A stretch of DNA of 62,996 nt, the filler included, from Globobulimina sp. (lineage: Eukaryota): NCBI GenBank assembly GCA_003354225.1. It is 51 parts of 51 records of this genome, joined end to end, with 100 filler letters (N's around TTAATTAATTAA, not from the genome) between each part and the next. Parts side by side here need not be neighbours in the genome. Positions count along the whole stretch, not along the records: positions 17,333 to 18,470 come from PIVH01022598.1; 50 more parts are not named here. The stretch is one strand, 5' to 3'. Numbering within the stretch: the first letter of the stretch is position 1; the number at the start of each line of letters is the position of its first letter. The translations under genes and the position numbers were made by a program. Of this stretch, positions 7,429 through 58,052 are shown in pieces. The notes under the pieces were generated by a model. That model ran no database searches and was not told the DNA's origin. It saw only the letters and a program-made list of their open reading frames with translations.

Positions 7429-8566
7429 ATACAAATTCCTACGAATTATTAGAAACTGTCATTGGCTGTCTCGGCAATGGCAGTCACGACGTACGCAGAT
7501 CCATCGCCATCTCATTAGGCAAATACTGCGAACATATGACCTCCAAAAATATACGAAACAAAGCCGTGAATGCGTTGATAGCAAACTACAAATCGCACGC
7601 TGACATATTGCTCATCAAAGAGAAGAAGAAAATATCAAAATGGACTTTCCGCCACGGCGTCGCCTTATCGTTGGCCCGCATCGCCGGCCTCCGCAGCCTG
7701 GAAAAACATTTTGTGCTCAGAATATTGGACTTCTTATTAAAAATTGGATTGTCCGAAGCCGACCAAAAAGTGTATAAACAAAACTTAAATTGCGGCCGTT
7801 CCTTATTTGAAGCGCATGGCGCGGCGTATCCCCACGATTTTTTTGAGAAATTGGAGAGTGCTCTGAGTAAAGTCGAAAACGAAGAAACTGTCCGCTCCGA
7901 CTGGATACGCCAAGGCAATGTCATATTTACTGCGTGTTTAGTGGAACAAATCGATGCTAACGACTCGAAATTAGATGATAAGATCGAGGCTGTCATGGAT
8001 ACGTTACTCGCAATCATATCCACGCCCTCTTTTGATGTACAATATGCGATTTGCGACTCGTTGACGCATCTAATCACGCGCCGCAATTTGAAATCTAAAG
8101 CGCAGAAATATGTCAATAAATTGCTACATTTATTGACCAGTTCGCGGGATTTAGCCGGCCGCCGCGGCGCCGCTATGGGTCTGGCCGCCATTGTGCGCGG
8201 TTTGAAGATCCCCAGTGTGTCGAGCTTGGGCATTATGAATTTCTTAGCCAAGGCTGTCAACCATAAGACACAGCCGCTCAGTCGACATGGCGCGTTATTG
8301 TGTTATAAGGAATTATTCACAGTGTTGGGCACTGCCTTCGAGCCGTTTGTGATTAAGGTTTTGCCGCATTTATTAACGCGATTCGGCGACGAAAACGCTG
8401 AAGTGAGGAAAGCCACGGCCGCCGCCAGTAAAGCAGTGATGAAGAATTTAAGCAATTTCGGCATCAAAATGGTACTGCCATTGGTGCTGATCGCGTTGGA
8501 TAAAAATGATTGGCGCACTAAAGTGCAGTCGTCGCAGATGTTGGGCCAAATGGCGTACTGCGCTCC
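7429..8566 (+). CDS. GCN1: eIF2-alpha kinase activator GCN1 (HEAT repeats), internal fragment
   Basis: RRGAAMGLAAIVRG, RHGALL..LGTAFEPFVIKVLPHLL.FGD, WRTKVQS..LGQMAYCAP match conserved GCN1 segments. Confidence 0.93.
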
Positions 8567-13373: not shown

Positions 13374-13889
13374 TTGGTTGATACTACAACTGTCCCTAGT
13401 TGAAAACATTAGACTATGGCTAACTAAGTTTTTTTCGAGACCGTTACATTTCAAGTCTACTTATGTCTAAGAGGATTGCTTGCCAGCAGCGTGGATTAAT
13501 AAATAGTCCTCACTCTATNNNNNNNNNNNNNNNNNNNNNNNNNNNNNNNNNNNNNNNNNNNNTTAATTAATTAANNNNNNNNNNNNNNNNNNNNNNNNNN
13601 NNNNNNNNNNNNNNNNNNTTTCTACCCACAGCCAGAACAATATGAAATGCGCTCTGTCGTATGTTTAGATGAAGCTTTCTTTGTTCAAAAAGACATCGAA
13701 GAATACACCACTCCCGGCCTAGTAAACCAAGCCCAATCGACAAACACCAACACCTTAAACACAAGTCCTATCCTCAAACCTCGCGGCGATGCCATCTCAA
13801 TCACCTCATGGCACGATTTCGGTATACAATCCATCCACATACACATTACACACACGTGCAAGGATAAAAAATATATAAATACACCCACT

Positions 13890-14756
13890 ATGACAGAATT
13901 ATGCGTCGAGGATGAGTCCTTATTCGACGAAACAGAAATATCATCGTATACAACCACAAACTACTCCGTCACCACCGCAGCAACCTCCATCTTCCAATCG
14001 CCGCGCTACAACACCATCAAACAAAGCACATTGGCCAAGCTCAACGCCGTCAACGACGATCCCGAAGACGCTCAAGACCTCAACGAAAACATCGACCTCA
14101 ACCTCGACGAGGATAACCCACACAAACTCTTCCAAAACCTACACAAATTTCGCAAATCCTTCATCGCCAAACGCAAAGCCTCCGGCGTCCACGACTTGGA
14201 CGACAACACTGCGTTCAGTGCACCGCCGACCAGCAGATCTGACGGCAGCTATCATCGGAGACTGCATACCTTGGATCTGGACAAAATAGACTTGGACAAA
14301 ATGCACATGATGGACGAGTCTGAGGTCTCTGAGCTCGATGACGAGCACTATGAAGAGAAAAAACATAGTCACTGCATAGCGCCTGAACATAGCGACGATA
14401 ACAAGCCTTCCACGCCGATCATGACCATACAACACGCCATCGAAGGCAGTCGCGAATTGGGTATTGACGACATCGGCGTTATTAACGACATCACCGACGA
14501 TGACGACAACACCATCGAGGAAAACCTCTACAAATCGCCCAAACTGAAGCATTTACGCAATATATCTATAAAAAAAAAGTCGCAGTGTGACGAAACCAGC
14601 ACGAATGTCGAGTTTGAGTTAGATATTGACCACAGTCACAGTCACGTTGGTAACGGCAACCACGGCAATGTGGATATGGACAGTGGCGACTTTATGGAGT
14701 TGCAGAACCATTTCAGTGTCCAACGGAAGTTAAATGGGCCCCGCGGCAGCATGAAG
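13890..14756 (+). CDS. Acidic low-complexity hypothetical protein, 5' part
   Basis: Long open frame; no domain recognised. Confidence 0.45.
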
Positions 14757-17332: not shown

Positions 17333-17789
17333 ACAACAAATCTTTTGAGCGAGTACCATAAATATATTTCATAGGAACAAATGGATAAAGTTTAAAATAC
17401 CTATTTACAGCTAAAAATGTTCTCCACCCTTCAAAAAATGCAACAAATAATATTGATGAAAGCGGGAATTTTATCCGTGTGTTTATAAGCAATTTCGCCA
17501 GTGCTACGTGATAAGTTTTATCTCCATAATTGGATGGGTCTTTGACTACCATTCCACCATAAAATATTATAAATTCTTTTCCTTCATATTGTAATGGATT
17601 TATTTTAAATCCTTGAAATCCAACAATTTTATTTGTTTCTTCAATCACAATAATATGAGTGTAGTTCTTTAAGAATTGAATCCATTTTTCGTAATCTATC
17701 CCTTTATAATTTGCTGAAAACAGTTTGAACATTTCGGACTTCAATTCATTGGTTAATGCATCGTATGTTGTGGTGTAAGACATTGGCAT
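17333..17789 (-). CDS. GNAT-like acyltransferase-fold protein, N-terminal 152 codons of a wrap-around 242-aa ORF (continues at 18351-18080)
   Basis: MFKLFSANY..IVGF..IIFYGG.VVKDPSNYG..GWRTF; the frame continues through the terminal overlap. Confidence 0.75.
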
Positions 17790-18079
17790 GATTGCTGTAA
17801 ATTGATTTCAATTGATCGATTTCAATTAATGTGGTTTTGTTTTTGCTTTTGTTGGTGCAGTGTTGGTGTGTGTTTTTTTACTGTGTTTATTTTTAGACTG
17901 TTTTATTTTTTTTGAGTTTGTTATTTGTATGTAATTCGTTTGTTTGTTGTTTATGATCAATTAAACTTAGGCAATTAACTAAAATTAGCAAATAATTTTC
18001 ATAATGTATGAATAACAAATGAAAGCTAAACTTAATTTAATTTAAAGAAACATTCCAAACATACATAAAATCATAAGAT

Positions 18080-18470
18080 TTACAATTTTGATGTTGGATA
18101 CAACTTTTTAATCAAAAGCCGTTTGGACCCCAATACAAGGTTGTAATACGATAACTCACCTATCATTAAAACACCGTCACCACTTTTTCTATTCGGATTA
18201 TGCTTCAATAACCATTTGATTTCAGGAGTATTTTTTAGTTTATCTGGCAACGGTGAGATTATATCTTCTTCAAATACAGAGTCTTGCTCACGTATTATAA
18301 GATTTTTCTCTTCATCATAATCGTCAGCAAATAATTGTTTTCCAATAAAAGACAACAAATCTTTTGAGCGAGTACCATAAATATATTTCATAGGAACAAA
18401 TGGATAAAGTTTAAAATACCTATTTACAGCTAAAAATGTTCTCCACCCTTCAAAAAATGCAACAAATAAT
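18080..18470 (-). CDS. C-terminal part of the same GNAT-like ORF, ending SKL-stop
   Basis: LFADDYDEEKNLI...PEIKWLLKHNPNRKSGDGVLMIGELSYYN...PTSKL. Confidence 0.75.
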
Positions 18471-23518: not shown

Positions 23519-24655
23519 TTTCATTAAAAAGAACCCAGAATACGTCGTATTGCAGAAAGATTGGCGTAATTTCTTTAACAACGTCAGCAGAAAAATCACA
23601 TTAGATCTCATACACCGCGTAGTGCCTACTATGTACCCTCAGGCTTTCCAACTATATCATAAACCATATTACATATATATGGCCAACAACGAGTGGTTAG
23701 CCAATGAGGAAGGTCTCGACCAAGGCAGTACGTCGTCGAATACCATCACTGCCGTCGTCTCAAAGTACTTCAACGAAATCGTATTGAAGAAATGCATTGA
23801 AATTAAGCCGGACTTCGAAAAACGAGGCGAAGCGGGGTATGTCGACGACACATTCGAATTATTGACAATCGCCGACGCAAATATTTACATCAAAGTCATT
23901 AAACTATTGGGCCCCGTCTTTGGTTTCATTCTCAATGAATCCAAAAGCGTCATAACGTGCAGTGGTCACCGTGACGCGATATGGGACCTTTTATCTGATG
24001 ATCTGAAACAATTTAAAATCAAAGAACACGCAAACTCCGAATGCCTGAACATTCCAATAGGTTCAGAGGAATATGTGTTGCGACAAATGGACATTAAGAT
24101 CAATGAAATCAAAAAGAGTATTGCCAAAATTGCGGGGATGGACCTAACCTTCTTACAACTTAAAGTTATGAAGGATTACATCAACATATCCCGTATGATT
24201 TATTGGTTCCACTCCGTACCGCCGAAGATCAGTTTGATGGTCGCGAGGAAGTACGACACGATGTTACGCGAATTATTATCAATGATGGGAGGATTTATTT
24301 TATCGGACGACGAATTTTTACAATGTAGCTTATCGACGAAAAAAGCTGGTTTGGGTATGCGCACCGCAACGGATAAAATTAGCGCGATCTATTTACCATC
24401 GATCTTCGCCGCGAAAGAGATATGTAAAAAGTTATTGGACTCTAACATTTATGATGATTTCATGCACGTTATTGATGAGCGAATAGTTTACGCGATGTCA
24501 TTGTACAACGCGTCTGTTTCTGCGAGATATCAAATATCGGACTTCAACGCAACAATTCACACAACCAAATGGATGATAAATGCCATACAATCCTTACAAT
24601 TGAACCGGTTGCTGGCCACAAAGACAGGCAAACATAAAGCGGCCTTATTATCGCA
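23519..24655 (+). mobile_element. Early-branching non-LTR retrotransposon RT (CRE/SLACS-like), internal fragment
   Basis: GLDQGS, YVDD, GFILNESKS, LNIPIGS, SRMIYW..VPP, LSTKKAGLGMR, AIYLPS. Confidence 0.75.
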
Positions 24656-25992: not shown

Positions 25993-26822
25993 AAGTTGAC
26001 CCAAATGGGAAAATCAGGCTCACATTAGAATTAGAACAAAGTGGAAAATTACCATTTTTGGACTGTATGGTTAATCGAGAACAAGGAAAACTACAATTAT
26101 CTGTGTACCGCAAACCGACACATAGTGGAAGAGTTTTACATTTTAAATCAGCCCAACCCAGATCCCAGATGGCAGGTACAATCGATAGCCTAACAAGAAG
26201 ATGTTACCAAGTATGCTCAGATCTTGAGACGAAAGTTACTGAAAAAGAATATTTGAAATCGGCCTTTATAAATTGTGGCTATCCCACTGGATTTGTGGTT
26301 AAAAATATGAATCCAGTAAGACCATCAAAGAAACGAGATAGTCCAAAAACGTCAGTATCCATCCCTTATATGAAAGGAGTTTCTGAGAAAATCCGATCCA
26401 TTTTGCAAAGATTTGATACAAAAGTATTTTTCCAGAAACATTGCACTATTGGCAGATTATTATGCAAAAATAGCCCTGAATATTCTAAAGAAGAACAGAA
26501 GAATCTTATATATGAAATATCATGTAATGACTGTTCGAAATTGTATGTTGGTATGACTGAAAGAAAGGTAAAAACAAGAATGAAAGAACATAAGAAAATG
26601 ATTGAAAACAAAGATAGAAAATCGGCTCTTGCCAAACATTCAATTGACTCTGGCCATTCTATTGATGTAGAGGGATTTAGTATTCGGTCATTGGCGAGCG
26701 ATAAAAGAGAACAGCTGCTGGCCCGAGAGGCGTTAATTATTTGCTCGACACCAAACACGCTCAATAAAGTCGAGTGTACACCTCACTCGTCGTTTGTGAA
26801 CATTTTGAAGAAGAAAAATTGA
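25993..26822 (+). mobile_element. Penelope-like element: RT thumb plus GIY-YIG endonuclease
   Basis: LPFLD, VYRKPTH, S.IPY.KGVSE, LIYEISC.DC..YVGMT, RMKEH, SALAKH, REAL..LN. Confidence 0.93.
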
Positions 26823-26914
26823 TTTTTGATACTTTTAGTGACAGAAAATATTAGAATTTTATATAACTGTAATCTGTTCTATTGCATTTTTGTAATCTAT
26901 CATTGTTTTAGGGT

Positions 26915-26955
26915 ATTCCTGAAGAAGTTTATAATGGATAAACGAAACGTCGAAT
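26915..26955 (+). ncRNA. Minimal type I hammerhead ribozyme in the Penelope 3' pLTR
   Basis: attc-CTGAAGA-A-gtttat(aatgg)ataaac-GAAA-cgTC-gaat: conserved core, 6-bp stem II, 4-bp stem I, palindromic ACGT stem III, GUC cleavage triplet. Confidence 0.85.
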
Positions 26956-27352
26956 TTTGTTAATTTGTTGTGTTATCAAAGCGGTTGAATTCCGTAGAAA
27001 GTTTTATTTATTAAAAATGAAATCACCGCAAAGTTGGAACTGTTACTATAGTTGGTCCTGACACGAAAACATGAACAGATATATAGGTGTCGCTGTTGGC
27101 GGCCGCTTGGCCGAAAAGGGGGCGGGGCCNNNNNNNNNNNNNNNNNNNNNNNNNNNNNNNNNNNNNNNNNNNNTTAATTAATTAANNNNNNNNNNNNNNN
27201 NNNNNNNNNNNNNNNNNNNNNNNNNNNNNTGTAAAGGAACTTAAAAAATGAAAACAAAGCACCAAAAGTAACAATTCTTTGAACATTAACTCCTTAAACG
27301 AAGCATTAAATGGAACAATATTGGACAGACTGCAATTAACAGTGCAACTTAT

Positions 27353-51697: not shown

Positions 51698-52559
51698 ATA
51701 CATTATGTTTGTATCTGTTTTTTTTTGTTTATTTGCAACCATATTGTTCGAATAGAATTAATTTAAAACAAAGAAAAAATCCGTTCCCTGTTAGCAACAA
51801 AAAAAAAAGATCTCAACCAAATTTCAGATCTGTGCAAGGATAATCAATGAATTAAACAAAATTTTGCATNNNNNNNNNNNNNNNNNNNNNNNNNNNNNNN
51901 NNNNNNNNNNNNNTTAATTAATTAANNNNNNNNNNNNNNNNNNNNNNNNNNNNNNNNNNNNNNNNNNNNAAATGCAACAAAAATGGTTGCATAGCTCAAG
52001 CAGAGCACTGGATTAATCCAGAAGATACAGGTTTGAATCCTGTGGCGACAGCAAATCATCGTACAGTGGATTTGGATTTTATGGAATGGATGAGTTTGGA
52101 TATAAAAAAGGGATTTAATATTTTGTGGTGATGTAAACCACCATGTATTGAATATAAAAATAGAAATATAGCATTCAAATGGCCACAAAGTGTCTGGTTT
52201 ATTAAAATAATGGAAATATAATGGTTTTATATAGAAACAAGGCAAAAACACAACGAAGGGAAGAAGATAGAAGCAAAATTTCAATTGGATACTGGCTGAA
52301 ATTCCATGTAGTTTACGTATATGGTATTTATTTAACGATTTGGATTTTTGTGAATTAAACCCTTTATATATCGTTACATCATGAATAATCTGCATTTGTA
52401 TTACTTATATTATCAAATCTATGCAGATCTTGTCCAGCAATCATGCCATCAAATACAATCATGCCATCAAATAAATATATGCATACATATGTTTTTTATA
52501 GTTATTTTTTGTTTTCATAACAATTATTATTCCAATCGCTAATCGATAATTTCCCCCAA

Positions 52560-56916: not shown

Positions 56917-57592
56917 TGTTTTTCATGCCAATTTAAACCGTGTACAACAGCACCAAGTCAACCGTGTGATGTCTATACTGATTCGCTTGAGAATGCATGT
57001 TCAGAATTTGTATCAAAAGGGCTCGTTTCCATACTCTCCCAAGGCGTTGCTCAAAGTGATGGAGAAAGTGGAGTTTTGCTACGAGAACGAGACTGAAAAT
57101 AAGAAAAATAATGTGTTTGATTTGGATTATTTGAATTATGTGAAAAAGAAAAACATACAAAAGGCCAAGAAGGAGGAACTGGAAAAGCTGAAGAAGAAAG
57201 ATGAGAAATCCAAGAAACCTAAAAAAATGCTGATCTCTTCGCTGTTTTTGCAGGATGTCAAATATCAGCAAGAACAACAAAAGAGGACCTCGGAGATTGA
57301 GCGGCGGCAAAAGGAGAATTTGGCAAAGCGGCGGTATAAGAAAAAGAAAAATGTGAAGGTGAAAACGAAAAAGAAAACGGAGACATTGCCGCAGAAACCG
57401 CAGTTTGTGAGAAACCAATCCATGGCGGCGCATATTATGAAGTCGAACCGGAAGAAAAATAAAAATTCGTCAAAAAAGAAGCATAATATTCAAACGAAAT
57501 ATAATTTGTCAAATTTGAAAAAAATCGATTTTCATCAAAGGTTGATTCATAAAACGGTCGATGCTGAGAAAAAGGTTAGAATCGGATTTTAG
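56917..57592 (+). CDS. Lys-rich hypothetical protein, 3' part
   Basis: Open frame over 200 codons. Confidence 0.45.
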
Positions 57593-57814
57593 TTGATATT
57601 GTTATAAAAGTTACATCTTTTTATGATATTGTATGTAAAGTTTTTTCTTTTTTTTTACATTGTTTTTTGTTTTGTTCTTTGTTGCATTGAGCGTGCTTAA
57701 TTTTAAATATCCATCGTTTATTTGTTTCTATAGTATATTATACAGAGACATATCTCAGAGCCAGAGTTATAATTAAAAGGTATACATTTGACTTGAAAGG
57801 TTTTCACAGAAAAC

Positions 57815-58052
57815 ATGTCTGCAGTGCATCAATCAAATGGAGCTGGTTCATCTGATATGGCAGCATTATTAATTGAAGATGTAAACTCATACAATGGGCA
57901 GAAACCAAAGCAATCTGCAAAAATAAAATGTATAAAATCACAGGTGGTGATTTTTTTATTGATTGTAGCAAGCACTGCTTTTTTATCCAATATTGACAGA
58001 ATTATTGATTATTTTTCAGGCTTTTCATCAAAAGATGATAATGAACAAATAG
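57815..58052 (+). CDS. Type II membrane protein, 5' fragment
   Basis: Short cytosolic N-terminus plus TM helix. Confidence 0.4.

Follow-up and report, generated by a model that had tools for sequence, protein, structure and literature searches.

A contig with identical ends from a Globobulimina sp. assembly carries an intact gene of an unnamed, predicted GNAT-fold family and may derive from a tandem duplication

Classical gene arrays, such as those of the histones, the 5S rDNA and the spliced-leader genes, are high-copy. Nanovirus segments and alphasatellites measure about 1 kb, are AT-rich and carry one gene, and in ciliate nanochromosomes and dinoflagellate plastid minicircles there is likewise one gene per small molecule. 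In an assembly, a word-length overlap between the two ends of a sequence can arise in two ways, either because the sequence is an isolated loop or because a unitig has its start and its end at the same branching node. In this work we have analysed a contig with such ends, which carries a single gene. Circular shapes in short-read graphs are a known signature of tandem repeats (PMC5499541), and our contig is like collapsed tandem genes in its word-length end overlap, its single reported unit and its head-to-tail joint. It is unlike the classical gene arrays in that its copies may be as few as 1.5 and its word depth is only 5–10. We propose, with a probability that we put at roughly 0.55, that the contig is a graph cycle which arose because a nuclear gene has been duplicated in tandem, perhaps only in part.

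The window, by which we mean the whole analysed stretch of 62,996 bases, consists of 51 contigs of 1136–1138 nt, placed in order of length with N/TTAATTAATTAA/N spacers between them, and the sequence discussed here is one whole contig in it, at positions 17333-18470 (1138 nt). A preliminary description of this DNA had reported that the terminal 119 nt of the contig are identical, and they are: the left copy (17333..17451, coding for residues ~114-152) and the right copy (18352..18470, redundant with the left) match at 100%. The distance from the start of one copy to the start of the other is 1019, giving a unit of 1,019 nt. No other contig in the window behaves in this way: none of the other 50 has ends that overlap by 15 nt or more. 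Both marks of a graph cycle, identical k-base ends and a sequence that is continuous over the joint, are found in it, and 119 is one of the default word sizes of MEGAHIT. Under the proposed duplication, the assembler would have come back to its start, the copies being the same over a stretch longer than the word, and it would therefore have printed one unit with the 119-nt word at both ends. A graph cycle is an ordinary and already known assembly phenomenon. Word-length identical ends in fragmented short-read assemblies do not show a circle, and we regard this as a caution, not as a discovery.

Comparison with related proteins indicates that the gene restored by joining the two ends of the contig is real, intact and complete. 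It lies on the minus strand. The 5΄ part (17333..17789) starts with an ATG at 17789-17787 and encodes residues 1-152 (P0001, the translation of 17789-17334), to which AlphaFold2 and Foldseek assign a GNAT-fold domain. The 3΄ part (18080..18351) encodes residues 153-242 up to a TAA stop at 18082-18080; it is collinear with the relatives P0004 and P0005 and contains a conserved C-terminal helical region with the N-P...G motif of the family. Translation of the same strand from 18469 to 18083 gives P0002 (residues 114-242), which has in common with P0001 the 39 residues encoded by the 119-nt repeat. In a doubled unit built by script, the frame stays open for 248 codons from stop to stop and for 242 from the ATG, and no further frame of at least 60 codons that is independent of the gene was seen.

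The alignments with P0004 and P0005 agree with the 242-aa protein that the preliminary description had obtained by joining the two minus-strand ORF pieces. P0004 aligns gap-free both with P0001 (39% over 150 aa, E 3e-42) and with P0002 (38% over 124 aa, E 2e-32), and its alignment stays collinear across the cut ends of the contig; the cut is therefore arbitrary relative to the gene, and reading around it restores a complete gene. The full-length relatives P0004 (247 aa) and P0005 (249 aa) match the joined frame in length, and because both align gap-free over the join, the joined frame is not a product of chance and the gene can be taken as real and whole. A linear annotation of the contig would split it into two fragments, and the wrap-around reading recovers the whole.

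Independent evidence on the joint comes from the k=31 contigs (not raw reads) of the public run X1, the only run with the sequence. This run contains 0.84 of the sampled words of the contig, and two sister runs of the same sample, X2 and X3, contain next to none of them, which is not proof of absence. No RNA run was listed as containing it. Record 1 of X1 (785 nt) begins exactly at 17973, spans 17973-18351 and passes from there directly into 17333-17514, so that the joint is flanked by 379 and 182 nt. Near 17514 (17500..17514, codons of a conserved motif, which is GDKTYH in this gene) the same record leaves the unit and runs into 224 unrelated bases. The 30-nt start of this loose end is absent from the window on both strands with up to 3 mismatches, and because it matches nothing on either strand the loose end is not a fold-back of the unit. 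Record 2 covers 17500-17913, and the mean word depth is 10.1 for record 1 and 5.5 for record 2, a ratio of ~1.8; there is one depth value for each contig, and amplification of the DNA, if it took place, may have made the depth uneven. One stretch, the 59 nt of spacer at 17914..17972, is not covered in the contigs of X1 and is the weakest link of the cycle, although a hole in contig cover alone proves nothing. As to the flanks of the repeated block, one exit and no entry were seen in these contigs.

How do these data bear on a circular molecule? The preliminary description had offered a gene-sized extrachromosomal circle or minichromosome as one of its readings, and had named graph edges leaving the cycle as something to look for. 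A true extrachromosomal circle of 1,019 bp could have been cut out of a chromosomal or tandem copy as an eccDNA, or it could be a stable episome the size of a gene, with only this gene on it. A word-length end overlap is what such a circle gives, its head-to-tail joint is independently confirmed, and one gene plus 290 nt of spacer, which could fit a promoter and a terminator, make for a compact unit. Against this, an isolated circle would show no exit path and a uniform depth, whereas in the contigs of X1 there is an exit near 17514, the depths are uneven (10.1 and 5.5) and 17914-17972 is uncovered. From a clean and abundant circle one would expect a single closed unitig with the same depth throughout; the pattern observed is different, so this reading is not supported. 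The low word depth in X1 (5–10) and the near-empty sister runs are likewise unlike an abundant small circle, without proving its absence. Together with the lack of replicon features and the ordinary, nuclear-like codon usage described below, these results make the circle improbable in our view.

A tandem duplication is the reading that we favour. We infer for the copy number, the order of the blocks and the chromosomal location the following arrangement: a nuclear gene of the ordinary kind, from a protist-like eukaryote with an AT-rich genome, would have been duplicated head to tail, with at least 1.5 copies in a row, in an A-B-A layout in which A (17973..18351 followed by 17333..17514) occurs twice and B (17515..17972) once, before an unrelated flank. 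On the strand of the gene, this order would read as a 3΄ gene fragment, the spacer and one complete gene. The depth ratio of ~1.8 between the two records agrees with what such a layout predicts. In addition, the P0005 gene, which is the closest relative with DNA in hand, is found beside other ORFs on a linear contig of 2,018 nt. Of the three readings in the preliminary description, its array is the nearest to the evidence: the head-to-tail joint stands, being bridged by an independent contig, and the homogeneous array gives way, probably, to a short or partial duplication.

Several observations speak against the duplication. The exit near 17514 may be due to a chimeric molecule or to a misjoin at a short repeat with k=31, and the assembler of the window, working with 119-nt words, made no break near that position. 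On the left, no flank leading into the unit was observed, and a simple A-B-A layout would have record 2 run on to 17972, whereas it stops at 17913. Furthermore, the joint would look the same if a circle existed alongside a chromosomal copy.

The main rival to the duplication is an artefactual closure through the thinly supported spacer. In that case the gene would be single-copy and thinly covered, and either a few chimeric reads or a chimeric molecule formed during whole-genome amplification would have linked its 3΄ flank with its 5΄ flank; nothing would lie head to tail in the cell. The absence of the closing stretch 17914-17972 from the independent contigs is what this explanation would lead one to expect, but the hole carries no weight by itself, as stated above. 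The depth is low (5–10), only one of the sample's three runs contains the sequence, the kind of result that low-input or patchy amplified data give, and the exit at 17514 is a second odd join in the same run. On the other hand, of the two links of the cycle only the one through the spacer could be false, since the link from 18351 to 17333 lies inside the gene and is a true continuation of the frame according to the homologues, and across the spacer link the sequence is plain AT-rich non-coding DNA that runs on without any mark of a junction. We consider an artefact of this kind unlikely, while giving it more weight than any circular molecule.

The spacer (17790..18079, 290 nt) is A/C-rich on the sense strand of the gene, that is, the minus strand. 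On the plus strand its GC skew reaches +0.71 and its AT skew -0.75, and these values are in line with the 290 nt of strand-biased non-coding DNA noted in the preliminary description. If the copies lie head to tail, the spacer would act both as the 3΄ flank of one copy and as the 5΄ flank of the copy that follows. A short imperfect palindrome or repeat (AATTGATTTCAAT / ATCGATTTCAATT; 17800..17827, 13-nt arms, 77% complementary) is located 11-38 nt upstream of the ATG and may be a candidate promoter element. Further into the spacer, at 17873..17912, there is a T-rich tandem repeat with a period of 16-17 nt and 2.3-2.4 copies. As a DNA strand the spacer folds no better than its shuffles (z=+0.98), Rfam gives no match on it at E≤1, and it contains no tRNA. 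Elsewhere in the window, at 51985-52051, there is a tRNA (36.8 bits), the only Rfam match of the window above the gathering score.

Our searches for the hallmarks of small replicons gave negative results. No origin-like stem-loop was found in the unit, where the arms of inverted repeats never exceed 13 nt and the best one is a repeat with 13-nt arms and 77% complementarity, and none of the 17 matches of the nonanucleotide NANTATTAC in the window falls in 17333-18470. The Pfam scan of the unit gave no match to a Rep, an RT, a capsid or any other replication protein, in accordance with what the preliminary description had said of the first three. No sequence of the spacer or of the unit is common to any of the other 50 contigs of the window, and the search for further contigs sharing 17790-18079, which had been suggested as a check, thus found none among them. 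No telomere-like repeats were present at the printed contig ends, which were inspected, and the ends of a ciliate-type nanochromosome are thus lacking. Two scans of viral contigs revealed no relatives, and among plasmids there was no DNA match. A search of phages returned two records under one name, at 25% identity.

These results speak against the idea that the contig is a segment of a multipartite small-circle replicon, be it an ssDNA of the nanovirus or satellite type or a minicircle of an organelle; a multipartite replicon had also been put forward at the outset. The unit is like nanovirus segments, alphasatellites and other small ssDNA circles in its size of ~1 kb, its single gene and its AT-richness, and its one gene per circle also recalls the organellar minicircles. 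It differs from the former in that the origin of a rolling-circle ssDNA replicon (stem-loop and nonanucleotide), a Rep, a common region among the contigs of the window and relatives in viral contigs or plasmids are all lacking, and from the minicircles of dinoflagellate plastids in that its gene is not organellar and no core region is common to the remaining 50 contigs. With ciliate nanochromosomes and similar gene-sized chromosomes the likeness is the single gene, and the difference the absence of telomeric repeats at the ends of the contig. The gene, moreover, belongs to a cellular GNAT-fold family, neither viral nor organellar, and its codon usage is like that of the nuclear-like contigs. 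The multipartite reading is already largely refuted, and we give it next to no credence. A self-maintained 1-kb circle in a protist, a cargo-only episome that would consist of a single GNAT-fold gene of bacterial type with 290 nt of control region and would be copied by host functions, strikes us as very doubtful for the same reasons: it would have to do without an origin-like hairpin, without the nonanucleotide and without a replication protein, with a spacer that folds like its shuffles and occurs in no other contig of the window. Such a minimal replicon would, if real, be of an unusual kind, but the evidence gathered here speaks against it.

Turning to the host genome, the gene has a GC3 of 0.266 against a median of 0.276 for the 31 other ORFs of at least 200 codons in the window, and its RSCU correlation is 0.73, the median of the same set being 0.72. 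Under alternative genetic codes the ORFs became no clearly longer than the AT-richness would account for, and the standard code is sufficient. On another AT-rich contig there is a fragment of a calcium-dependent protein kinase like those of plants, diatoms and ciliates, and P0004 comes from a collection of eukaryote proteins. On the basis of the source of P0004, the codon usage, the kinase, the absence of telomeres and the standard code, we take the gene as nuclear and as belonging to an AT-rich, protist-like eukaryote.

Not all contigs of the window look alike. Four of them (7429-8566, 13619-14756, 23519-24655 and 56917-58052) have long ORFs with a GC3 of 0.51-0.60, whose codon preferences agree little with those of the AT-rich majority (r from -0.08 to 0.36), and may come from a second organism or from a distinct genome compartment. 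Among these four is the GCN1-like contig, which had been proposed as a depth standard and which may therefore be unsuitable as a single-copy standard for the unit. A search with a GCN1-like fragment gave hits of at most 64% identity. In two other contigs (1239-2376 and 25993-27129) the long ORFs, judged by eye from their translations, resemble reverse-transcriptase fragments of retroelements.

What is the protein encoded by this gene? Pfam, NCBIfam, PHROGs and a search of the PDB by sequence gave nothing significant for it. A word-indexed protein search with P0001 returned no match, and an exhaustive profile-free search with the same query found 70 proteins at E≤1e-3. The protein in the top row, P0003, was rejected: it is a repeat protein of 1934 aa with 26 matched stretches, the best of them on query residues 77-118, and by eye its match was judged to be repeat-driven. 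The best Pfam match of P0001 is Acetyltransf_1, which at 13.3 bits against a cut-off of 20.7 remains below the gathering score; among 18 scanned relatives only P0007 passes for this domain (25.4 bits).

Structure prediction was more informative about the N-terminal part. The AlphaFold2 model of residues 1-152 has a pLDDT of 91.2 (53 rows in the alignment) and that of P0004 a pLDDT of 93.5 (family alignment of 52 members). Compared by Foldseek with the PDB at E≤1e-3, the first model matches 284 chains and the second 158, and GNAT acetyltransferases head both sets. Acetyltransferases of aminoglycosides, ribosomal proteins and histones come first, with probability 1.00 and E down to 2e-7, and with a TM of ~0.5-0.6 for the domain model (residues 1-152). 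We conclude from the models that the N-terminal ~150 residues have the predicted fold of the GNAT (acyl-CoA N-acyltransferase) superfamily. The C-terminal ~90 residues are helical and conserved, with an N-P....G motif, and they have no Pfam or NCBIfam model and no named counterpart. Thus the protein is like the GNAT superfamily in the fold of its first 150 residues but differs from it in its sub-threshold Pfam score and in its extra conserved C-terminal part, and on the strength of these models the 242-aa protein is assigned to an unnamed family of proteins of ~250 aa with a predicted GNAT fold.

The family, for which Pfam and NCBIfam offer no model, is well represented in bacteria. In a scan of one genome per prokaryote species, performed with a smaller alignment of the family (A4), at least 581 loci encode relatives, and the loci listed belong to Myxococcota, Bdellovibrionota, Gammaproteobacteria, Acidobacteriota, Planctomycetota and Sericytochromatia. 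From the 80 loci kept (L001-L080), 49 had their ORFs listed, and 16 of these were picked by hand and not at random, so that the fractions given here are only indicative. A Rieske/VanA-type oxygenase is adjacent to the family gene in 12 of the 16, and a GH3-family adenylating enzyme is adjacent or fused to it in 8 of the 16; fatty-acid desaturases and short-chain dehydrogenases are found in two loci each (2/16 and 2/16). Examples of the loci kept are L012:4941-8441, L065:4983-7391 and L024:4835-7321. Other members of the family are fused to a desaturase, to PAP2, to an MFS transporter or to a cupin domain. From the GH3 and Rieske context and from these fusions we infer a putative acyl-group transfer step in a small-molecule or lipid pathway. 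The neighbourhood of GH3 and Rieske genes in these 16 loci looks like an undescribed conserved gene cluster.

On the eukaryote side, members of the family are few. The gene for P0005 is located on a metagenome locus, L081, whose contig of 2,018 nt has a GC of ~45%; next to it, at L081:713-2017, are a 263-aa ORF and a 165-aa ORF on the opposite strand, open at the contig end. The window protein, P0004 and P0005 share only 20-28% identity with the bacterial members. They also differ from them at a conserved site: bacterial members have the sequence FSGDT, in which the D-T after the G is near-invariant, and this is replaced by GGMV in the window protein, by GNT in P0004 and by GTV in P0005. The replacement of the D-T and the low identity may reflect an old transfer from bacteria to eukaryotes with a changed function.

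The identical ends of the contig, in a unit for which an independent assembly shows a way out of the loop, are an example of how such ends should be read. The only mildly new item in this work is the unnamed family with the predicted GNAT fold. Two things may be worth keeping: the complete gene that the wrap-around reading recovers, and this large family, encoded at the bacterial loci counted above, with a few members on the eukaryote side and without a described function.
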